A stretch of DNA of 32,000 bases, from NCBI RefSeq assembly GCF_018336915.1, contig NZ_CP064927.1:150001-182000 (forward strand), read 5' to 3'. The stretch comes from Acaryochloris marina S15 (GTDB lineage Bacteria; Cyanobacteriota; Cyanobacteriia; Thermosynechococcales; Thermosynechococcaceae). Under the pieces are notes generated by a model. That model was given only the letters and a program-made list of their open reading frames with translations, did not search any database and was not told where the DNA came from. Both the position numbers and the translations under genes were made by a program. Position 1 is the first letter of the stretch. Each line of letters starts with the position of its first letter. Below are positions 7,178-32,000 of the stretch, in pieces.

Positions 7178-8398
7178 GGTAGTTAGGTGAGATTATCTCA
7201 GCCCCTCTAGCTAAGGGAGGCTCGAAAAAGGTATTGCTGAAGAGAGTTATTGAGCCAAGATACTCCCATGGAAGAGAAAAAAAGGCCATTACTTTCAGAG
7301 CTAGCTTGCGTGAACTCTAACTGTGAAAGCTATGGTCAAGCGGGCCTTGAGAATTTAACAGTACGTAAAGTCTACGGACAAGATCGAATACGGTATCTGC
7401 GCTGTCATAGCTGTGGAGCAGAGTTCAGTGAACGCAAGAACACTGCCTTTTGGAATACAAAAATCCCTGAATCTCGAGCAATAGAAGTAGGTCGTCAAAT
7501 TGCAGAAGGAACGTCTATCAAAGGAACATCACGTCTGACCTACACCCATCCGGATACGGTGAAACGTTTGACCCTCAAGTTTGGTCAGCATGCCCAGGAC
7601 TTTCATGAGCAGGAAGCTCAGCAACTGGATATCGACATACTAGAGATGGACGAACGTCATGGATACGTCGCCAGCAAAAAGCAGCAGTGTTGGGATGCGG
7701 TATCCATTGATGCCGCCAGTAAATTCATTGTCCACGTGGCCGTTGGTCCCCGTAACACAGACCTGATAGAAAGGCTGATGCAAGGCAGTCACAGACGACT
7801 AGCTCATCCCCAAGACCTGGTGCTGATGACCGATGGAGAAGCGAGTTATCGCACTCTCTTTCCGGTCATCTTCGGGGTGTCTTACCTCCCCCCCGTCAAA
7901 GCACGATGGGTCGACCTCCCAACTCCAAGTATCGGATTCCTCGAACCCTTGCCCACGTCCAAGTCATCAAGCATCGTCAGGGACAAAAGTTAGAAGCCGT
8001 AGAGGTGAGCAAAGCTCATGGGAGCTGGCAACGGATTAATCAAGCGCTAGATGAAATGGGTTACAACATCCCCAACACCTCAACTGTGGAGCGTTTCAAT
8101 GGCACTGCACGACGGATGAATGCTCATCAAGTCAGACGCTCACTTGCTTTCGCTCACCGCAGTGATACTCGTCAGGCCGTTGCTTGGTGGAGTGCTACAG
8201 TTTACAACTGGGTGAGAGAGCATCGCAGTTTACGAGCTCCTCTAGAAGTACCCGAGGGTAAAAAGCGCTTTCAACAGAGAACTCCTGCCATGGCAGTTGG
8301 ATTAACTGAACACATTTGGACCGAAGCTCAGATCCTCAGAGCACCCGTTTATATAGCTTCTCAAGAATAGGGGGCTGAGATAATCTCACCTAACTACC
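7178..8398 (+). mobile_element. IS1-family-like insertion sequence (1221 bp)
   Basis: Perfect 28-bp terminal inverted repeats: ggtagttaggtgagattatctcagcccc at 7178-7205 and its reverse complement at 8371-8398. They enclose a two-frame transposase. No flanking target-site duplication is visible. Confidence 0.85.
7250..8370 (+). CDS. IS1-like transposase in two overlapping frames (7250..7993 and 7906..8370); a -1 shift is needed
   Basis: The N-terminus has a zinc finger plus HTH (CVNSNCESYG..CHSCGAEFSERKNT). DDE-type blocks are WDAVSIDAASKF, LMTDGEASY and VERFNGTARRMNAHQVRRSLAFAHR, the last resembling the IS1 InsB ERxNxxxRxxxxRxxRxxxxFS signature. A -1 slip in the C7 run at 7888-7894 joins ..FGVSYLPP to RQSTMGRPPNSKYRIP... 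Confidence 0.75.
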
Positions 8399-20022: not shown

Positions 20023-21408
20023 GGCTCTCCGGTAATTAGCGTGGTGACACCCTACATATAGTGTTTATTCCTTAGTCATCTCCTATGGAATGATCTGAGG
20101 AGGTACTTCAGAACGAGAGTGTCATGGATAACTCAATTCGCATTCCCCTCAACCTTCCCGATGTTCAAGTTCTAGAGCTATCGAAGACGGAACGAGGGGA
20201 TTGGCTGATCAAAATTGAGAGTACTCTGCAAGGAACAACCTGCCACAAATGTGGACATGAGATTACTGACCTTCATTGCCATGATCAGGCTCTTCGAATT
20301 CGTCACTTGCCATTGTTCGAAGTACCAGTGTATTTAGAAATTCGGCCCAAGCGCTATCGATGCGGGTATTGCGATGACCATCCCACAACAACTCAACGCT
20401 TAGAATGGCATGAACCTCGCAGTCCCAATACAAAAGCTTATGAGCATTGGCTTCTGCGTATCCTGATCAACTCAACGGTCTCAGATGTTGCTAGAAAACT
20501 AGGCGTTAGTGAAGGTGTCGTCAGTGGCATTATTGATCGCTGGATTGCCTGTCAAGTTGACTGGAGCGAATATTTAGACCTCAAGGTTATCGGGATTGAC
20601 GAGATTTCGCTGAAAAGAGGCCACCGTGATTTTGTAGTTTTGATCACGATTCCTACCACAGGCGGAGTAGACATATTGGCAGTTCTGGCCGACCGCAAAC
20701 AACAGACCGTTGCAAATTTCTTCAATCGATTCCCCTTCATTTACGCCAAACCATTGAGCGGGTTTGTACTGATATGTATCAAGGATTTGTCAATGCAGTC
20801 CGTGAACAACTCCCTCAATCCAAAATTGTCATTGACCGCTTTCATGTGGCCAAAGCCTATCGTAATTGCGCCGATACGGTTCGTAAACGGGAGGTCAAAC
20901 GTCTACGCCAAGAACTCCCTAAGCAAGACTATGACAGTATCAAAGGTGCGATGTGGGCCTTTCGAAAACGGCCTGAGAATCTCCAGGAGTCAGAACAACA
21001 GTTGCTTGAGCGAGTGTTTGCTTATTCTCCTGAGATGAAGCAGGCCTACAAACTCCGAGAGGAATTGACACAGATATTTGAGGGTAGGTACACCAAAAAC
21101 GGAGCTAAATGTGCCATCCGGGCTTGGTGTAAACGAGTCCTCAAAAGTGACATCAAGGATTTTGAGAGTTTCCTGACCACTGTCAACAATTGGATGGATG
21201 AGATGACCAACTATTTTCTGGAGGGATGGACCAGTGGCTTTGTCGAAGGATTTAACAACCGAGTTAAGGTCCTAAAAAGACGATGCTACGGTATTTTCGA
21301 TATTGAAAGGCTCTTCCAAAGAATTTCGCTTGACCTCAATGGGTATCAGACTTTTGCCTTGACCTAAATACTATATCTAGCGGCTACCACGCTAATTCCC
21401 AGAGAGCC
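20023..21408 (+). mobile_element. ISL3-family insertion sequence (1386 bp) with an 8-bp target duplication
   Basis: Terminal inverted repeats begin GGCTCTC: ggctctccggtaattagcgtggtgac.. at 20023, and the reverse complement of ..gtcaccacgctaattcccagagagcc ending at 21408. The direct repeat ggaattat sits at 20015-20022 and 21409-21416. Confidence 0.9.
20124..21367 (+). pseudogene. ISL3-family transposase, split into two frames (20124..21038 and 20774..21367)
   Basis: The N-terminal zinc-finger region is TCHKCGHEITDLHCHD..YRCGYCD. The central block is IGIDEISLKRGHRDFVVLI. The C-terminus is DMYQGFVNAVREQLPQSKIVIDRFHVAKAY...GFVEGFNNRVKVLKRRCYGI. Homology switches frame around 20727-20737 (cgattcccctt). 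A -1 shift there gives FFNRFPLHLRQTIERVCTDMYQGF. Confidence 0.85.
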
Positions 21409-24127: not shown

Positions 24128-24335
24128 CTGCCTGACATAAGTGGGGTTATGCCGACATACGCCTAATTTTTCTCACAGGATCGCTATGAACTATATTTAG
24201 CAGTACTTTTCAGACTTTAAAATTTAGGTTTTTGTGAGTTTATATGCCTGACCACAGCAGATAGATCAGAAAATGGTGTCTGCTAGAAAGTAGATAGAAG
24301 CATAGCATCCATATTCCTCACGGTGCATAGATTAA

Positions 24336-24535
24336 GACCTCAAACGACCGAAGCTGTATTTTGGTGCAGAATAGACCTATAAGCTATGAATAGCAGAGAT
24401 TTTAGCAAATTCCATTAAATATTGCTTATTGAGAATCTTATCGGTTTGCAAACGCTGTAACGACCAAAACAGGTTAATTACTATAGTGCATTTATACTAA
24501 ATTGCCCCATATCGCAGCTTCAGTCGTTTGAGGTC
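24336..24535 (+). mobile_element. MITE-like element, family A, copy 1 (200 bp)
   Basis: Terminal inverted repeats are gacctcaaacgaccgaagctg ... cagcttcagtcgtttgaggtc. It has no coding capacity. A second 200-bp copy lies in the same orientation at 24962..25161. Confidence 0.75.
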
Positions 24536-24936: not shown

Positions 24937-24961
24937 CTTGATTTTCTAAATGTACTTGCAA

Positions 24962-25161
24962 GGCCTCAAACGACCGAAGCTGCGTTTTGGGGCAGCTTAA
25001 CCCTAAAAGTCATGAATAGTAACGGTTTCAGATACTCTCATTAAATATTGCTTATTGAAAATCCAGTCAGCTCGCAAAAGCTGTAACGACAGAAATTGGT
25101 TCAGTGCCACAGTACATTTATACTAAATTGCCCCATATCGCAGCTTCCGTTGTTTGAGGCC
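24962..25161 (+). mobile_element. MITE-like element, family A, copy 2 (200 bp)
   Basis: Terminal inverted repeats are ggcctcaaacgaccgaagctg ... cagcttccgttgtttgaggcc. Internal blocks shared with copy 1 include attaaatattgcttattga, gctgtaacgac and catttatactaaattgccccatatcgcagctt. Confidence 0.75.
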
Positions 25162-25249: not shown

Positions 25250-25368
25250 GGAAGCGTAATAGATTCGTAGTCTATATTTTATGATGAAGTTTATTCAGGG
25301 AACTACAAATAAATAAGGGAATTGTGATTCATTGATTTTACATTCCAATTAACCAATCATCGGAACAT
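25250..25368 (+). repeat. Partial MITE family B copy (left 119 bp only)
   Basis: It appears identical by eye to 27884..28002. It lacks the right-hand 41 bp, including the right terminal repeat. Confidence 0.8.
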
Positions 25369-25509: not shown

Positions 25510-26656
25510 GGGAGCATGTCACCTTTGCATGCCAATTAAACCATTGAGATAAGCACACCGATGTGCAAGCACTTGCGGAACATTGCTTTCATTCCACTGC
25601 GCCCCTGAAATTTTGACTCTGCGACTAATCTGTTTGATAGCAGATTCAACAGCTCCAGAGCCAATGGAACAAATTTGCTCACTCTGGTAATAGTCATAAT
25701 TGACGATCCGATGCCGATGTTTGCGAACATAGTTGCAAAAGACTTGGGCCTGCTTTTTCTTCAACGACTCAAACAGAGCCAAGGTTTCATCAACCTTCCC
25801 CTGCCATAAGAGTTGTTCCGCCTGGTGCAGACGTTTGAGAGATCCACCGACCTTATGAAGATTTTCCACCAGATGGTACCAGTCCAGAATTTCTCGTCGT
25901 TGCTCAGGTATGCTCAGCTGACTAACAATGTTCCAAATGCCATCATGACCATCCCCTAAGCAGGTCACTGGGGAGGCTAACGGTTGCTGGTGAGTCCAGC
26001 CAATGAGGCGGGCATTATTGTGATAATCCGCGATGAGTCCCACCTCTGTTGCCAGGGTTTTATAGTCTTTCCACTGACAAGGTTGTCCTGCAGGGGTGCG
26101 GATGCGCACTTTGCCACCATCTACACTTACTTCGGTTAAAACTTCGTGGGCCTGGGGCTCAGGAAACTGTTGTTGATGGACTAATCGTTGCTGAGTTTTG
26201 GCTGCAATCTGAATCCCGGTTAAATAAGCCACATCTTGAGCGGCTTGAGCGTAGGAGACATTCGCACTGATGCGTAAACAACAATTCTCTAAATGAGGAC
26301 TGATTTGACGATAGGAGGAAACAGCGAGATGCTGTGCCTGGTGAGTTGTAACGGTTAGAACACCCAAGGTGCTTTTCAGCTTTCGGTTACGGCCTGCTGC
26401 TGTGCCAGTAGCTGTGCGGATAAAAAATGACCGAGTTCGGGACTGACATGGGTCTGGATTTGCTGACGCACCGTCATCTCAATCCCTTCTAGCGTCTTCA
26501 TGTCTGCTGGATCGCTTTCCTCGTAGAGTAATTGAGCTATCGCATCGAGATGGATTTTGAGTTGAGCTGCTTTTTCTGAGTTCATCAATGAAGACTTCTG
26601 GGCAACACTTGTATCCTCTACTGTTTCACAACAATCTGCAAAGGTGACATGCTCCC
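25510..26656 (-). mobile_element. ISKra4-like insertion sequence (boundaries approximate)
   Basis: A 14-bp perfect inverted repeat, gggagcatgtcacc (25510-25523) / ggtgacatgctccc (26643-26656), encloses the transposase. The transposase stop codon lies inside the left repeat. No target duplication was identified, so the ends may extend a few bp. Confidence 0.55.
25519..26585 (-). pseudogene. ISKra4-like transposase in two frames (N-terminal part to 26376; C-terminal part 25519..26367 plus open upstream extension)
   Basis: C-terminal part: VSVDGGKVRIRT, CLGDGHDGIWNIV, ILDWYHLVENLHKVGGS, LWQGKVDE, KHRHRIVNYDYYQ and SIGSGAVESAIKQISRRVKISGAQW. The C-terminal frame stays open upstream to the T6 run (plus strand aaaaaa, 26422-26427). 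One extra T would join ..SPELGHF to FIRTATGTAAGRNRKLKSTLGVL.. The likely start is the ATG at 26585 (MNSEKAAQL..), just inside the right inverted repeat. Confidence 0.7.
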
Positions 26657-26792: not shown

Positions 26793-27740
26793 ATGCAAAG
26801 AGTGATTTCGGTTGTTTATATTAGCTGGATATTTATAAATACTCCTATTACACCAGCATATGCTCAGCCTTCTCAAGAAGTGATACAGTCGCCTGGAACT
26901 AAAAAAAATAGAACAATAAGACAACCAATATTATTAAGTCAACAGAGATTTACTAAGTCAGGAAGTAACGAACCTGAACCGGTATACATAGATCTCGGGA
27001 AAAGCGATAATTTCTTTAAAATAATTCTTAGTTTAATCGGGTCATCTATTGCAGTTATATCTCTCCCTATTTCTAAATTAATTAGCAAAAATATTGATAG
27101 AAAATCTGCACTCCAAGAGTCAAAAAAGATTAATGAAATTGCAGAACTTGTTAAGGCTGAATCAAAAATAGAAAATGTTGCTCTTGCCAGAACAATTGCT
27201 GAGAAATCTTTAGGCGAAGATACAATATTAGAAATTAAAGAAAAGATACAAAGTATTGAGATTGAAGTATCAGAATTAAATAGACCAATTAAGTCGGCAA
27301 TAGAAGGTTTGGTTAGAAACTATCATTCACAAGCTCTCAGGCAATCTGCAATTCAATTCTACTTTAGTTTAATAGCAGCAACTTTTGGTTTTGGTCTCAT
27401 CATATATGCAGGAATAGAAACATTAGATTCGAGAGACTCAGGAAAGATTATAAATACTATCCCAGGTGCAGTAATTAGCGGTGTCTCAGCACTATTTTTT
27501 AAGCAAGCTGAGGAAACTAGAAAGAGAGCCACAGATTTATATGATCGTCTACGTTCTGATGAAAGACAATTAAAGGCAATCTCCATTGCTAGTCAAATAG
27601 AAAGTCAGGAAGTTCGTTCACTTGTACAAGCGCAATTAGTGCTACACCTTGCAGATATAGAAACTGCGAACCCATTAGATCTCAGCTCTAAAATCCCTAA
27701 TTTAATAACATCGAAAGTCTTAAAAAGTGATGAAGCTTAG
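26793..27740 (+). CDS. Membrane protein: signal/TM region, coiled coil and a C-terminal two-TM hairpin module (resembles TRADD-N-associated / SLATT-like 2TM effector domains)
   Basis: The putative signal peptide is MQRVISVVYISWIFINTPITPAYA|QP. A TM helix is FFKIILSLIGSSIAVISLPI. A Glu/Lys/Ile-rich coiled coil spans about aa 105-175. The module itself reads QALRQSAIQFYFSLIAATFGFGLIIYAGI..(loop)..IINTIPGAVISGVSALFFKQAEETRKRATDLYDRLRSDERQLKAISIASQIESQEVRSLVQAQLVLHL. Confidence 0.55.
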   Translation: MQRVISVVYISWIFINTPITPAYAQPSQEVIQSPGTKKNRTIRQPILLSQQRFTKSGSNEPEPVYIDLGKSDNFFKIILSLIGSSIAVISLPISKLISKNIDRKSALQESKKINEIAELVKAESKIENVALARTIAEKSLGEDTILEIKEKIQSIEIEVSELNRPIKSAIEGLVRNYHSQALRQSAIQFYFSLIAATFGFGLIIYAGIETLDSRDSGKIINTIPGAVISGVSALFFKQAEETRKRATDLYDRLRSDERQLKAISIASQIESQEVRSLVQAQLVLHLADIETANPLDLSSKIPNLITSKVLKSDEA

Positions 27741-27883: not shown

Positions 27884-28043
27884 GGAAGCGTAATAGATTC
27901 GTAGTCTATATTTTATGATGAAGTTTATTCAGGGAACTACAAATAAATAAGGGAATTGTGATTCATTGATTTTACATTCCAATTAACCAATCATCGGAAC
28001 ATTGATAACTTCGCAGGTTAGACTATAAATCTATTACGCTTCC
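27884..28043 (+). mobile_element. MITE-like element, family B, complete copy (160 bp)
   Basis: The terminal inverted repeats ggaagcgtaatagattcgtagtcta ... tagactataaatctattacgcttcc are 25 bp with 2 mismatches. The interior is AT-rich and non-coding. Confidence 0.75.
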
Positions 28044-28135
28044 TATGACACTGTCACCCCGTTTTGAACCTGGCCAGTTTATCCATAGAATAAAGCCCGA
28101 AATGAGTTGAAGGAAATCAGCTCAAATATACTCTC

Positions 28136-28468
28136 TTAATTAGGAAATTTACATTTCACCTCAACCTCCAAATTTCCACCTACGGTTCCCTCCGTTATGA
28201 ATGGGATGCCAGCTTTGCCGCCCATATTGAGTCCAAACTTAAACGTTAATTCTTCAACCTCTGCCTTTGAAAAATTTTGAAATGCAGTAACTACATATTC
28301 AGTATAATCAAACATCAATTGTCGAGCTGCATCTAGTTTTATAATCGTATTTCTATTCAGGCCATATTCCTGAATATCATCATCACCAGGAGCAGCCATA
28401 ATATTCAGATCAACCTCAATTTCACTAATTTCTTCTTTATGCTGGAATGTAAGTTTTGCTTTAGACAT
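28136..28468 (-). CDS. trypco2-like (CU044_2847-type) small protein
   Basis: 110 aa from the ATG at 28468. The C-terminal beta-rich segment VEELTFKFGLNMGGKAGIPFITEGTVGGNLEVEVKCKF matches the E-l-x-F-x-f-G-v....a-G...........a-n-l-k-V-x-l-k pattern I recall for trypsin-co-occurring domain 2. It is divergently arranged 120 bp from the protease-STAND gene. Confidence 0.5.
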   Translation of the reverse strand: MSKAKLTFQHKEEISEIEVDLNIMAAPGDDDIQEYGLNRNTIIKLDAARQLMFDYTEYVVTAFQNFSKAEVEELTFKFGLNMGGKAGIPFITEGTVGGNLEVEVKCKFPN

Positions 28469-28588
28469 ATTGGCTATCACTAATTAATTTAACTAACATG
28501 ATCCATTAAAAATTGAATCTTGCATTCATTATAAAAGTTATATTATGCTTTGATTACTATTTTCGCTCAATTCAGAAGATAACGCTCA

Positions 28589-30622
28589 ATGGAAAGGGAA
28601 GCACTCGTAATTGGAATTCCTGAATATGACAACTTCAGTTCTCTACCAAAAACTACAATAGATGCTGAGGCTGTGGCAACACTGCTCGAAAAATATGGAG
28701 GCTTTAGAGTTGAGCGTTTACCCAAAAAATTAAATCCTGATAAAACTGGTCAAACCACTAAAGCAGATAAAGTTACTTATAAGCAGCTAGCAACTGCTCT
28801 CAAAGCTTTTATCCAAAGAGCTAATAACAAATACGCACTTATTTATTTCACTGGCCATGGATTTACAGAGCAGAGCTTATTAGGAAGGACACGGGGGTTT
28901 CTATGTCCATCTGATTGCTCTATCAAACATAATGATGAAGGCATTATTTCTAGTCAAGTGAATGGTTTAGATTTTGAAGAATTAAACCATTCACTTGAGC
29001 AAGCACAATTCAGCCAACTGGTATTGCTACTGGATTGTTGTCATAGTGGATATTTTATTGAAAGATATCAAGTTGAGAATGGCTTAAAAACATTCTTAGG
29101 ATCAAAAGATTTTTATCTGATCACTGCTTGTTTAAGTAGTGAAACTGCAAAAGCGATCATAAGCAAAGAGAACAGCGTTTTTTCTGGAGCAGTTATCCGT
29201 GGTCTCTCACAAGAGAATCAAGATCATGATGGAAAGATCAGTGCCAGTCGTCTATTCGATTTTATTCAAAGAGAGTTGAAGAGCCGACTCCAAGAACCTC
29301 TACACCTAGGTTCTGGTAGTTCAATTAATCTATTAACATACGGAAATATTGAATCAAGCACACCCGTAATTCTCGATGGCAACGGTGAACCACAATGTCC
29401 CTATCGAGGTTTATCTCCTTTTGAAGTTGAACACGAAAAATTTTATTTTGGACGAAGAGCTGAAGTACAAGAAATCATCCAAAAACTGTATTGCTTCTCG
29501 TTCGTATCCATTATTGGAGCATCAGGGAGTGGTAAGTCTTCGTTAGTAAAGGCTGGGTTAATTCCCCATCTTGAAGATGAATGGCATATTTTGAATTCTA
29601 TTAAACCAGATGCTCGACCTATAGTTAATTTAGGTCAAGCAATTGGCAGTCTGTTCGAACTATCCTGTGATCGTAAACAGATCATAGAACTGCTTGAAAA
29701 AGATGGTATTTCACCAGTTTTAGAGATGTTATCAAAGACTACTTTAATGAATTCAGGGAAGCAGAAAATATTGCTAGTGATTGATCAGTTTGAAGAGGTT
29801 TTTACTATCTGTGTTTCTGGTAAAGAAAGATCGCAATTTATTGAGTGTATGGCTGCGGTAAAAGCTCATGATAATTCTCCTTTATCTATTGTAATGACGA
29901 TAAGATCTGAGTTTACACATGATCTTTTTCAAGTCTACAACAATCTTTTTCAGAGGAATAAAGATTCAATACTTTGGTTGGGTCAACTACAAGGAGAGGA
30001 CTTGCGGGAGGCTATTAAACTACCAGCAATGAATCAAGGTTATACCCTGGAGGCAGGGTTAATGGAATTGCTTGTGAATGATGTTCAGGCTGAAATGAAC
30101 TTTCTGCCCTTGCTAGAATTTGCATTAACTGAATTATGGGATAGACGAGAAAAAGCTAGAAAAGAGCTTCCGCTTCGTACTTATATGGATATGAATCGCT
30201 TGTCAGGAGCATTAGATAAGCGTGCGGAAGATGTATATAACGATGCTTTAAGAACAGAAGATGAACGTTCCTGGATTAAGCGCATTTTTTTGGAGTTAGT
30301 TCGTTTTGGTATACAAGGTATAGATACAAGAGAGCGCAAAACTCGTAAAAGTCTAATAGCAATGGGACCAACCCCAACAGAACAAAGTGTAATTGACAAG
30401 GTAATTGAAGTCCTCATACAAGGCCGGCTATTAGCATCAACCAATGAGCATGAAATTGACTTGGTCCATGAAACCTTAATGTCTGGCTGGAAACGCTTCT
30501 CTAAGTGGCGGAAAGAGAATCGTGAGGACAAACTATTAGTTCAGCAACTTGGGGATGCCGTGACAGAATGGCAACGTGAAGGAGACTCTTTTCTATTACA
30601 AGGGGGGGCTAGCAAAGGTTAG
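28589..30622 (+). CDS. Caspase-like (peptidase C14) domain fused to a STAND-class P-loop NTPase (nSTAND1/NACHT-like); frame ends prematurely after a G7 run
   Basis: Caspase dyad: ALIYFTGHGF (His codon 28856-28858) and LVLLLDCCHSGYF (Cys codons 29036-29041). NTPase: PYRGLSPFEVEHEKFYFGRRAEV, Walker A IIGASGSGKSSLVKAGLIP (from 29516) and Walker B-like KILLVIDQFEEVFT. Helical arm: LPLLEFALTELWDRR ... LVHETLMSGWKRFSKW. The stop comes 4 codons after gggggggg-less run ggggggg at 30602-30608. Confidence 0.85.
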   Translation: MEREALVIGIPEYDNFSSLPKTTIDAEAVATLLEKYGGFRVERLPKKLNPDKTGQTTKADKVTYKQLATALKAFIQRANNKYALIYFTGHGFTEQSLLGRTRGFLCPSDCSIKHNDEGIISSQVNGLDFEELNHSLEQAQFSQLVLLLDCCHSGYFIERYQVENGLKTFLGSKDFYLITACLSSETAKAIISKENSVFSGAVIRGLSQENQDHDGKISASRLFDFIQRELKSRLQEPLHLGSGSSINLLTYGNIESSTPVILDGNGEPQCPYRGLSPFEVEHEKFYFGRRAEVQEIIQKLYCFSFVSIIGASGSGKSSLVKAGLIPHLEDEWHILNSIKPDARPIVNLGQAIGSLFELSCDRKQIIELLEKDGISPVLEMLSKTTLMNSGKQKILLVIDQFEEVFTICVSGKERSQFIECMAAVKAHDNSPLSIVMTIRSEFTHDLFQVYNNLFQRNKDSILWLGQLQGEDLREAIKLPAMNQGYTLEAGLMELLVNDVQAEMNFLPLLEFALTELWDRREKARKELPLRTYMDMNRLSGALDKRAEDVYNDALRTEDERSWIKRIFLELVRFGIQGIDTRERKTRKSLIAMGPTPTEQSVIDKVIEVLIQGRLLASTNEHEIDLVHETLMSGWKRFSKWRKENREDKLLVQQLGDAVTEWQREGDSFLLQGGASKG

Positions 30623-32000
30623 AGAAAGGTGGTCAACTCTCCATAAGATAGTCACACCTCTAGTTCGAGATTTTTATCAATGCAGCATTGATAAAGAAGT
30701 AGAGAAAATTGAAATTCTAGAGAAGGCTTTGAGGGAAGCGGAGTTACGAGAACAAGCCTGGAAAGTTATGTGTCTCATTCCTACTAACCTCCATGAGGCT
30801 GCAGCCTTGGCAATACAAAATACACAAAAGAGCGACGAACTTATCTATGGAGAAGTGCTTGCTCCTGTACAGGGGAATTTAAGAACTATTAGCGACAAGA
30901 TTGTAGAACTATACTGCTATCAAGACCACGGAGTTCCTTGTCTATCTGTAGCCTTTAGTCCCAATGGCCAGCAAATTGTGGGTGGTGATGATGATGGGAA
31001 CCTATGGTTATGGAATACATTTGAAACTTCCAGTGGCGTACCTTTCCATGGTCATACTGCTTCTGTGGGGTCCGTTGCCTTTAGCCCTGATGGTCAGAAG
31101 ATTATTAGTGGTAGTGATGATAAAACACTTCGACTATGGGATTCGCATGGTAATCAAATTGGCGATCTTTTTCGTGGTCATAAGTCTTCTGTTTGGACTG
31201 TAGCCTTTAACCCAAACAGTCGGACAATTGTTAGTGGAAGTGCTGACGGAACTCTAAGGCTATGGGATCTACAAGGAAATACTATTGGTAAACCTTTTGA
31301 CTGCCACGGGATTACAGTACTTTCCGTAGCTTTTAGTCCTAATGGCCAATACATTGTCAGTGGTAGTAAAGATAAAACTTTAAGGCTATGGGATTTACAA
31401 GGAAATACTATTGGTAAACCTTTTTATGGTCATGATGATTTTGTTTTTTCAGTGGCCTTTAATCCTAATGGTCAGCAAATTGTTAGTGGTAGTGCTGATG
31501 GAACTCTAAGGCTATGGGATCTACAAGGAGATACTATTGGTAAACCTTTCCATGGTCATACTGCTTCTGTGGGGTCCGTTGCCTTTAGCCCTGATGGTCA
31601 GAAGATTATTAGTGGTAGTGATGATGGGACCGTACGGATATGGGATATATTCGGACACCCCATTTGTAAACCTCTTCATGGTCATGCTAATTCTGTTCTG
31701 TCTGTTGCCTTTTGCTATGATTGCCAGACAGTGGTCAGTAGTGGAGATGATAAAACAGTTCGACTATGGGATATAAAAAACCATACTATTTCTACTCTCC
31801 AAGGCCATATTGGTATGGCTTGGTCCGTAGCCTTTAGTCCTAATGGCCAACAAATTGTCAGTGGTAGTAATGACAAAACAGTTCGACTATGGGATACACA
31901 AGGCAATTCTATTAGAGACCCTTTTCATGGTCATACTGATTCTGTTTTGTCCGTAGCCTTTAGTCCTAATGGCCAACAAATTGTCAGTGGTAGTAATGAT
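30609..32000 (+). CDS. Continuation of the STAND protein in the +1 frame: linker plus WD40 beta-propeller repeats (runs off the window end)
   Basis: This frame is not in the supplied ORF track. I translated it by hand: it is open from 30564 to 32000. It reads LAKVRERWSTLHKIVTPLVRDFYQCSIDKEVEKIEILEKALREAELREQAWKVM..., followed by repeated GH..SV.SVAFSPDGQ.I(V/I)SGS.D.T(L/V)RLWD units. Confidence 0.85.
30924..32000 (+). repeat. Tandem 126-bp WD40-coding units (at least 8.5 units in the window) with very high DNA identity between units
   Basis: One example is the 81-bp perfect repeat cctttccatggtcatactgcttctgtggggtccgttgcctttagccctgatggtcagaagattattagtggtagtgatgat at 31041-31121 and 31545-31625 (offset 504 = 4 x 126). 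Another is ggaactctaaggctatgggatctacaagga at about 31250 and about 31500. A third is tccgtagcctttagtcctaatggccaacaaattgtcagtggtagtaatga at about 31822 and about 31951. Confidence 0.9.

Follow-up and report, generated by a model that had tools for sequence, protein, structure and literature searches.

At one end of a 32,000-nucleotide (nt) stretch of the Acaryochloris marina S15 genome (contig NZ_CP064927.1, positions 150,001 to 182,000 of the forward strand; hereafter the window, whose first letter is position 1 of all coordinates), two genes are arranged head to head. The small one encodes a protein of the Trypco1 family, the large one a caspase-like protease joined to an nSTAND1 nucleoside triphosphatase (NTPase) and, behind a break in the reading frame, to a WD40 repeat array. 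Two-gene conflict modules of this kind are widespread in cyanobacteria, and the locus is a frame-broken copy of one in A. marina. By analogy with related systems we favour, with a probability of roughly 0.55, the interpretation that the module serves cell suicide or immunity, in which a sensor would operate an NTPase switch, the switch would activate the protease and the protease would release a pore formed by Trypco1.

The locus

The features of the locus are as follows (HMM, hidden Markov model; ORF, open reading frame; aa, amino acids):

28136..28468, minus strand: Trypco1 / CU044_2847-family gene (Pfam Trypco1, 46.5 bits; NCBIfam CU044_2847_fam, 57 bits)
28469..28588, no strand: divergent AT-rich spacer of 120 bp (sequence)
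28589..30622, plus strand: frame-0 ORF of 677 aa (WP_212667260.1) encoding the caspase-like protease and nSTAND1, with a premature end just past the G run (HMMs, AlphaFold2)
28598..29284, plus strand: Peptidase C14 (orthocaspase/metacaspase-like) domain, aa 4-232 (Peptidase_C14, 68 bits)
29399..30583, plus strand: nSTAND1 NTPase module, aa 271-665 (nSTAND1, 330-333 bits)
30602..30608, plus strand: homopolymer of seven G (G7), site of the frame break (sequence, translation)
30609..32000, plus strand: +1-frame continuation with a coiled linker followed by the WD40 array (translation, WD40 HMM)

The small gene starts with ATG and encodes 110 aa, its product being identical to WP_212667259.1; an upstream GTG at 28480 would extend the product to 114 aa. 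The large gene starts at 28589 and, once its frame is repaired, reaches the end of the window. As read from the sequence, the spacer lies between both start codons. It contains one promoter-like site (minus strand, 28570-28542), which is directed at the Trypco1 gene, and the number of such sites in the scanned region was no higher than in shuffled sequences. The GC content amounts to 0.35-0.37 at 27-30 kb versus 0.40-0.50 in most of the window. A note prepared by a model from the letters alone (the original prediction) had described this two-gene layout with its coordinates, its AT-rich spacer and a number of motifs, all of which are present in the sequence. Only the motif leading into the NTPase was partly misquoted, as PYRGL is present but the alleged FFGR reads FYFGR.

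Conservation of the gene pair

A word-indexed homologue search with the small protein returned nothing but the protein itself. An exhaustive HMMER search yielded 148 cluster representatives, which were used as the seed of a profile. With this profile 1,792 Trypco1 proteins were obtained; among the matches listed, all were annotated as Trypco1 and the named ones were cyanobacterial. More than 2,600 relatives of the caspase-nSTAND1 protein were found, with only 42-46% identity even in the nearest ones. Their C-terminal parts consist of WD40 repeats, histidine kinase, cyclase, GGDEF, SpoIIE/PP2C, CHASE2 or FGE-sulfatase domains or pentapeptide repeats, or are missing altogether. In some homologues GUN4 or phycobilisome-protein domains also take the place of WD40, while the divergent Trypco1 gene is kept. 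Examples of domains replacing WD40 were seen in P0004, P0038, P0057 and P0089 and at the loci L004, L090, L091 and L031.

To place the pair in its genomic context, one genome per species was scanned with an alignment of 11 close Trypco1 relatives. This gave 79 distinct loci, all of them cyanobacterial, and in 75 of the 79 a caspase-domain gene starts 35-250 bp from the Trypco1 gene, always in divergent orientation. When four individually examined loci were included, the caspase-adjacent partners of Trypco1 comprised caspase plus nSTAND1 plus WD40 (57), caspase plus nSTAND1 (12), caspase only (9) and caspase plus WD40 (1). Conversely, a divergent Trypco1 gene resides directly upstream of all six homologues of the large protein that were examined, which include WD40, histidine-kinase, cyclase, SpoIIE/PP2C and tail-less forms. 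Synteny of the small gene with caspase genes, as anticipated by the original prediction, was thus confirmed.

The two genes also diverged together. For Trypco1 and the adjacent caspase domain, pairwise distances correlated with r = 0.89, a figure inflated by relatedness, and none of 2000 label permutations reached this value. Since paralogous pairs inside one genome have diverged in the sequences of both genes, each pair evolves as a unit. The flanking genes vary between the examined loci. Thus, the system consists of two genes, in which the Trypco1-protease core is constant, nSTAND1 usually serves as the chassis and the C-terminal domain varies.

The large protein

The N-terminal domain matched Peptidase_C14 with 68 bits (cut-off 21.4). 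The catalytic His90 resides within YFTGHGF (28856-28858) and Cys151 within DCCHSG (aa 149-154; Cys151 at 29039-29041), and H90, C151, D25 and D149 were found to be invariant both in 16 and in 64 homologues. A search of the PDB with the single sequence of the caspase domain gave nothing, whereas the profile search succeeded and matched fungal metacaspase-1 (7qp0, 4f6o), MALT1, Arabidopsis metacaspase-4 and TbMCA2. In the profile alignment DCCHSG falls on DSCHSG, and D25-A26 on the ND-A of the metacaspase-1 motif CINDA. The AlphaFold2 model of the 677-aa product reached a mean confidence (predicted local distance difference test, pLDDT) of 86.9. Foldseek aligned its N-terminal domain with the metacaspase 7qp0 (template modelling score 0.60 on the target), MALT1, GSU0716 and the caspases 4, 9 and 11. 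The original assignment of a caspase domain was corroborated by these sequence and structural matches. The NCBIfam model caspase_w_EACC1 (NF047832) gave 86 bits, which is below its cut-off of 140, and no EACC1-like gene is adjacent.

Partly on the basis of the pocket residues of TbMCA2, we take D25 and D149 to be the two acidic S1 residues of metacaspases. Since both are retained, the protease is predicted to cut after a basic P1 residue (Arg or Lys). Characterised C14 enzymes, with the exception of the animal caspases, cut after these residues owing to an acidic pocket (PMC5756287).

The caspase domain is followed by an NTPase that matched nSTAND1 (PF20703) with 330-333 bits (cut-off 27.1) over 375 of 379 profile positions. 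The lead-in CPYRGLSPF...FYFGRR precedes Walker A (GASGSGKSS, aa 310-318, 29516-29542) and Walker B (LLVIDQFEE, aa 395-403, 29771-29797), and a helical/winged-helix arm follows the NTPase core. Walker A and B as well as the PY and GR of the lead-in are invariant in the 64 homologues and intact in the window protein. NACHT (PF05729, 12.9 bits, cut-off 26.7) and NB-ARC (PF00931, 13.3 bits, cut-off 23.5) were matched in the P-loop only. The STAND NTPase of the original prediction is therefore borne out as nSTAND1, and it is neither NACHT nor NB-ARC. Foldseek related the NTPase to the archaeal STAND-like ATPases PAB2304 and SSO1545, to Orc1/Cdc6, to Apaf-1 (1z6t, 3sfz, E ~1e-5) and to MalT. Behind the frame break, the WD40 model scored 312 bits across nine stretches, in agreement with the at least eight WD40 units originally described. 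The array begins at approximately 30924, is composed of 42-aa (126-nt) units whose 126-nt direct repeats are 66-79% identical, contains at least eight blades and continues past the end of the window.

The small protein

The small protein had been regarded as trypco2-like. It matched Pfam Trypco1 (PF19493) with 46.5 bits (cut-off 24.6) over profile positions 16-98 of 98, and Pfam Trypco2 (PF19631) was absent among its matches at E <= 0.1, so that the assignment has to be changed to Trypco1. The CU044_2847 family, which had been named along with trypco2, was hit by NCBIfam CU044_2847_fam (NF041216) with 57 bits against a cut-off of 23, and NCBI's own name for the protein is CU044_2847 family. 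The AlphaFold2 monomer model is of low confidence but has a clear topology, in which a disordered acidic linker (22-38) joins a short N-terminal hairpin to a helix (39-64), and a long hairpin (70-87 and 91-107) follows the helix.

In the family alignment, positions 71, 74, 76, 78, 80 and 82 of the first strand of the long hairpin and 100, 102, 104, 106 and 108 of the second are approximately 100% hydrophobic, and between them Lys or Glu occur in about equal shares. Among 349 unique Trypco1 homologues, the residues facing each other across the strands carried opposite charges in 320 of 322 cases (73-105), 303 of 307 (77-101), 277 of 278 (81-97) and 282 of 285 (85-93). The registered pairs are thus oppositely charged in 98.7-99.6% (phi -0.97 to -0.99), and non-registered pairs of the hairpin showed a weaker charge correlation. 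Swaps between Lys and Glu at these lumen-type positions (28148-28261 of the window, minus strand) are coordinated; at least four distinct charge patterns were recognised, with several independent swaps among them. The second strand has a beta hydrophobic moment of z = 3.3. These data support a long amphipathic hairpin with one hydrophobic and one salt-bridged, charged face, predicted from the alignment to be the type of element that builds beta-barrel pores.

Cys106 of the terminal C-x-F-P motif is near-invariant (334 of 344). The tail beyond this motif is polar and comprises 1-20 aa in the family, mostly 2-10, and a single residue in the window protein. Moreover, two residues that are mostly basic in the family are replaced in the window protein (R53F and K64Q). 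At position 64, ~93% of the homologues have a basic residue, and the window protein and 14 others have Q. The stem hairpins of alpha- and gamma-hemolysin surfaced in the Foldseek search with the monomer at E > 2 only; we did not count them as evidence.

The frame break

The large ORF is broken by the G7 run at 30602-30608, the sole run of at least seven G within the 32 kb, and ends at a stop codon at 30620-30622. Removal of one G gives a frame that is open to the end of the window (1137 aa, still running), and the +1 frame after the run extends over ~465 codons without a stop. The repaired junction FLLQGG-LAKVRERW matches the family consensus YLMQGGLLAEVRxxW. Intact relatives encode the large protein as a single ORF. 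An independent Logan short-read contig (SRR12447961), spanning 27973-31069, agrees with the window over 3,098 bp apart from an eighth G in the run (G8), by which it is likewise out of frame. In-frame lengths would be G6 or G9, the latter leading to QGGGLA, which equals in length the QGGLLA of the family. The closest homologue reads CAA GGG GGG CTG CTA GCA at the run, and relatives often carry G5-G6. On comparison with the codons of the closest homologue, the window looks as if two nucleotides had been lost, by which a G would have been fused onto a G6 run.

Because all residues that are invariant in the 64 homologues are intact, the lesion must either have arisen very recently, be variable or represent a miscall of the homopolymer. 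The frameshift uncouples the sensor from the caspase-NTPase part, and for this reason the copy is probably inactive, at best switchable. Regarding programmed frameshifting, no Shine-Dalgarno-like sequence was recognised by eye before a GTG restart at ~30577, a search for stimulatory elements not having been made. The locus had no match in the plasmid collection, and the flanks of the G run were on none of the metagenome contigs searched. For the small protein, the metagenomes yielded just two close relatives, at 44% identity.

The locus may be an inactive remnant, in which a real frameshift has parted the caspase-NTPase from the WD40 sensor and which is heading to loss; we give this explanation somewhat less than an even chance. 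It would account for the fact that both the G7 and the G8 assembly are out of frame, for the apparent 2-nt deletion and for the NCBI annotation of a truncated 677-aa product, and it would be in line with the deviations R53F and K64Q and with surroundings rich in mobile elements. Relatives are sometimes broken as well, by frameshifts (L010, L072), by in-frame stops (L021, Nostoc flagelliforme FACHB-838) or by a fragmented Trypco1 gene (the cyclase-type locus L090), which suggests frequent decay or turnover of such modules. On the other hand, the invariant catalytic, Walker and family residues are all intact, Q64 is shared with 14 other family members, and ~465 open codons downstream are not expected by chance, so that any inactivation must be very recent. 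In addition, the length of the tract is uncertain or variable, since it differs between the assemblies.

A less probable, tentative explanation is that the break is not fixed at all. It could be a homopolymer error of sequencing or assembly, or the run could act within the population as a slipped-strand phase-variation switch, by which the sensor would be coupled at G6 and G9 and uncoupled at G7 and G8. The run length is the only difference between the two assemblies, whose DNA is otherwise 99.97% identical, the tract is unique in the 32 kb, a G9 run would restore the family length and the remainder of the gene looks, by its sequence, fully functional. Yet neither of the two observed lengths is in frame, and a G8 run is usually called correctly by short-read assemblies. 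We know of no report on phase variation in the caspase-nSTAND1/Trypco1 family.

Mechanism and comparison with known systems

Trypco1 and Trypco2 were named as small proteins co-occurring with peptidases in NTP-dependent conflict systems by Kaur et al. (2020, PMC7159879), who also defined EACC1. Two members of this class have since been studied experimentally (Evans et al., bioRxiv 10.1101/2025.11.14.688446). SsPepco of Streptomyces subrutilus is a latent beta-barrel pore former giving 9-10-mers resistant to sodium dodecyl sulphate; it is cut after Ile97 by the neighbouring trypsin-Avs4 and is needed for portal-triggered toxicity. EACC1, encoded beside caspase-Avs12 of Ktedonobacter racemifer, is cleaved to a pore-forming fragment. 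In our searches SsPepco matched Pfam Trypco2 with 65.6 bits. The original statement that the role of the small partner had not been studied is thus outdated for the class, and still true of the Trypco1-caspase pair.

The domain families, the intact catalytic and NTP-binding residues, the head-to-head synteny, the co-divergence of the genes and the covariation within the hairpin were established in this work, and we infer from them, and from the systems just mentioned, every step of the following mechanism. The WD40 propeller would bind a trigger, most plausibly a phage protein. As judged by the behaviour of the STAND family, nSTAND1 would then exchange its nucleotide and oligomerise, which would gather the N-terminal caspase-like domains and thereby activate them. 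The activated protease would cleave the neighbouring Trypco1 protein, presumably after Arg or Lys, and cleaved Trypco1 may, by analogy with Trypco2/Pepco and EACC1, form or unlock an oligomeric beta-barrel pore that would kill the infected cell. The sensor-executioner logic of the original prediction is reasonable in this respect. Its choice of the caspase as the effector is probably not, because by analogy with Pepco it is more likely that the small protein is the terminal effector and the caspase a licensing protease.

The likeness to the Pepco system concerns a ~110-120-aa protein without enzymatic motif, encoded beside a large protein in which protease, STAND NTPase and repeat sensor are joined, the amphipathic beta strands with hydrophobic and charged faces (predicted in Trypco1), and the retention of the protease-effector pair while the sensors vary. 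The two systems differ in several respects. The protease of the window is a C14 cysteine protease instead of a trypsin, and the NTPase belongs to nSTAND1 instead of the Avs4 type. The Trypco1 gene is divergent, whereas in Streptomyces the Trypco2 gene runs in the same direction as its partner and directly adjoins it. Trypco2 begins with the helix and has a long cleavable tail, whereas Trypco1 begins with a hairpin and an acidic linker and has an internal helix. A tail of the Pepco type, removed after a conserved Ile, was not recognised in the Trypco1 family, the tails of which are without a conserved Ile-Arg site. As a side observation, Trypco2 genes on two Streptomyces plasmids (L087, L088) abut large genes for tetratricopeptide or FxSxx-COOH-system proteins, in the same direction.

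With the EACC1 system, the window shares a caspase-like N-terminus on a STAND protein and a small adjacent partner, which in the case of EACC1 is cleaved to a pore-forming fragment. The best NCBIfam match of the window caspase domain is even the EACC1-associated caspase model. Nevertheless, its score places the domain outside that subfamily, the partner is Trypco1 and not EACC1, and the predicted cut is at Asp in the EACC1 system versus Arg or Lys here. Cyanobacterial WD40 orthocaspases such as Trichodesmium TeMC9 and the Gloeobacter enzymes (PMC5756287, PMC7475262, PMC8283722) have in common with the window protein a p20-type C14 domain, the His/Cys dyad, the acidic S1 residues and WD40 repeats. 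The parts of this literature considered here (PMC5756287) treat the protease alone, with no mention of a Trypco1 neighbour, and the STAND module was named nSTAND1 later.

The order WD40 sensor, STAND NTPase and caspase activation recalls the Apaf-1 apoptosome, which the NTPase model matches in structure. In the Apaf-1-like STAND proteins of cyanobacteria the protease is fused directly, without recruitment by CARD (bioRxiv 10.64898/2026.01.04.697583), and the protease of the window is likewise fused directly to its NTPase. Different from Apaf-1, this NTPase is nSTAND1 and its NB-ARC match (13 bits) stays at P-loop level. Bacterial gasdermins represent another case in which a neighbouring protease removes the inhibitory part of a latent pore former, leading to abortive infection. 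Trypco1 has no relation to them in sequence or fold, is about one third their size and is predicted to be constructed from one hairpin only.

Several observations weigh against the mechanism proposed. Comparison by hhalign of the Trypco1 profile with SsPepco as a single sequence gave a probability of 0.04%, and of 1.1% with a shallow Trypco2 alignment of four sequences. The AlphaFold2 monomer of Trypco1 is of low confidence (pLDDT 56.7) and had no significant Foldseek match in the PDB, and its helix is not clearly amphipathic (z = 0.7). The ~20-aa charged, proline-rich C-terminal tail of SsPepco is absent from the window protein. A strictly conserved Lys or Arg that might serve as the P1 site was sought in the Trypco1 family alignment and not found. 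As position 64, though mostly basic, is Q in the window protein and 14 others, no cleavage site can be named. Neither protein matched a system-specific model, e.g., Avs or bNACHT, in PADLOC-DB 2.0 (2023). Matches of the large protein comprised the generic 'caspase' model (51.7 bits), one repeat model that fell on the WD40 array, and three weak ones (mad3 at the P-loop and two Cmr8 models); the small protein gave none. To this must be added that both available assemblies, G7 and G8, are out of frame, and that unusual domains in the place of the sensor hint at inputs besides phage proteins. Since the tested SsPepco is a Trypco2, without detectable similarity to Trypco1 and in a different layout, we regard the Trypco1-caspase mechanism as a well-motivated hypothesis.

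Two further explanations concern the function of the module, and we consider both unlikely. The first follows the original prediction in making the caspase the terminal effector, which would degrade proteins of the cell; Trypco1 would then be an accessory, namely an inhibitor, antitoxin-like partner, adaptor or decoy substrate. A characterised class of caspase-like bacterial proteases, PCaspase, is cited as cutting many targets in the cell (bioRxiv 10.1101/2025.11.14.688446). A divergent Trypco1 gene with its own promoter region instead of co-transcription would fit a separately regulated controller, and homology of Trypco1 to the tested Trypco2 is undetectable. However, a strictly amphipathic, salt-bridged hairpin with an invariant hydrophobic face resembles a membrane-inserting or oligomerising element and not a protease inhibitor. 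Deletion of the small protein removed toxicity in the Pepco as well as in the EACC1 system, and the Trypco1-caspase pair is constant while the remainder of the large protein varies.

The second explanation, to which we ascribe a similarly low probability, holds that the module is not chiefly antiviral and works as a stress- or development-related device for regulated cell death or signalling that answers endogenous cues. Since many homologues bear kinase, cyclase or PP2C domains instead of WD40, the input need not be phage, and Trypco1 is retained with the replacing domains (histidine-kinase, adenylate/guanylate cyclase, GGDEF, SpoIIE/PP2C, CHASE2, GUN4 and phycobilisome-type). In Trichodesmium, expression of orthocaspase genes including the WD40-bearing TeMC9 is elevated upon iron starvation and bloom collapse (PMC5756287), and at the locus itself there is neither a PADLOC system match nor a recognisable defence gene in the neighbourhood. 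By contrast, related protease-effector-STAND modules answer phage proteins in tests, the combination of STAND with a repeat sensor is typical of pattern recognition, and variable genomic contexts and low-GC DNA beside mobile elements are reminiscent of mobile defence genes.

Very improbable in our view is the most far-reaching combination, by which Trypco1 would have evolved separately from Trypco2 as a single-hairpin pore former. The N-terminal hairpin and the acidic linker would restrain it, and metacaspase-type cleavage after a basic residue would license it, while slipped-strand changes in the poly-G run of A. marina would serve as a phase switch, coupling and uncoupling the sensor and thus setting the module on or off at the population level.

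Genomic surroundings

A MITE-like element (miniature inverted-repeat transposable element) of 160 bp at 27884-28043, with 25-nt terminal inverted repeats GGAAGCGTAATAGATTCGTAGTCTA, is located 92 bp downstream of the Trypco1 stop codon. Within it 119 nt recur with 100% identity at 25250-25368, 2.6 kb off. Between these copies resides an insertion sequence (IS)-like element (25510-26656, minus strand) with perfect 20-nt inverted repeats, whose transposase-like frame is split into 109 and 282 aa and shows a weak UPF0236-type match. Direct repeats of 200 nt at 24334-24533 and 24960-25159 are 80% identical, and the inverted ends of 33 nt in the first copy point to another small family of MITEs. Other mobile elements of the window are an intact transposase of the Mutator/IS256 family (10543-11781, plus strand, 388 bits), an ISL3-family transposase split into two overlapping ORFs (20124-21367, plus strand) and an IS1-like fragment (7250-7993, plus strand). 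The window also encodes a class A penicillin-binding protein (PBP1), a group-2-like sigma factor, a methyltransferase and a GNAT protein.

Two neighbouring genes deserve mention. The gene at 26793-27740 (plus strand) encodes 315 aa, in which a domain of two transmembrane segments, CyanoTRADDas_TM (54.8 bits), is combined with an extended coiled region; the window ORFs that were scanned did not include a recognised TRADD-N protein. We rejected this gene as a third component of the module, as a homologue was present in none of 83 related loci. At 13008-14297 (plus strand) a 429-aa protein matched the eCIS core / DUF4157 domain (112.8 bits), which is found in the cargo and toxins of contractile injection systems, and no injection-system genes were recognisable nearby.

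The original prediction had taken the AT-rich surroundings with MITEs, an IS and the two-transmembrane gene to be consistent with a defence island. As the rest of the window consists of transposases, PBP1, the sigma factor and similar genes, the case for such an island is weak; the window is a mobile-element-rich mosaic with no recognisable defence island.

Significance

The locus had been put forward as the most promising uncharacterised system of the window. Being frame-broken in two independent assemblies, it is a poor exemplar. Its consequence is modest: a family that counts thousands of members in cyanobacteria gains one more, defective copy from Acaryochloris. The logic of such modules has been known computationally since 2020, and sister modules were tested in 2025. 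The combination of Trypco1 and an orthocaspase is the commonest cyanobacterial version, itself without detectable sequence relation to the tested Trypco2. From the charge-swap covariation a specific hypothesis on the structure of Trypco1 can be derived, namely an amphipathic hairpin with salt bridges across its strands. If the mechanism proposed is true, the 'orthocaspase cell death' of cyanobacteria, a subject of long discussion, would gain a defined executioner substrate.

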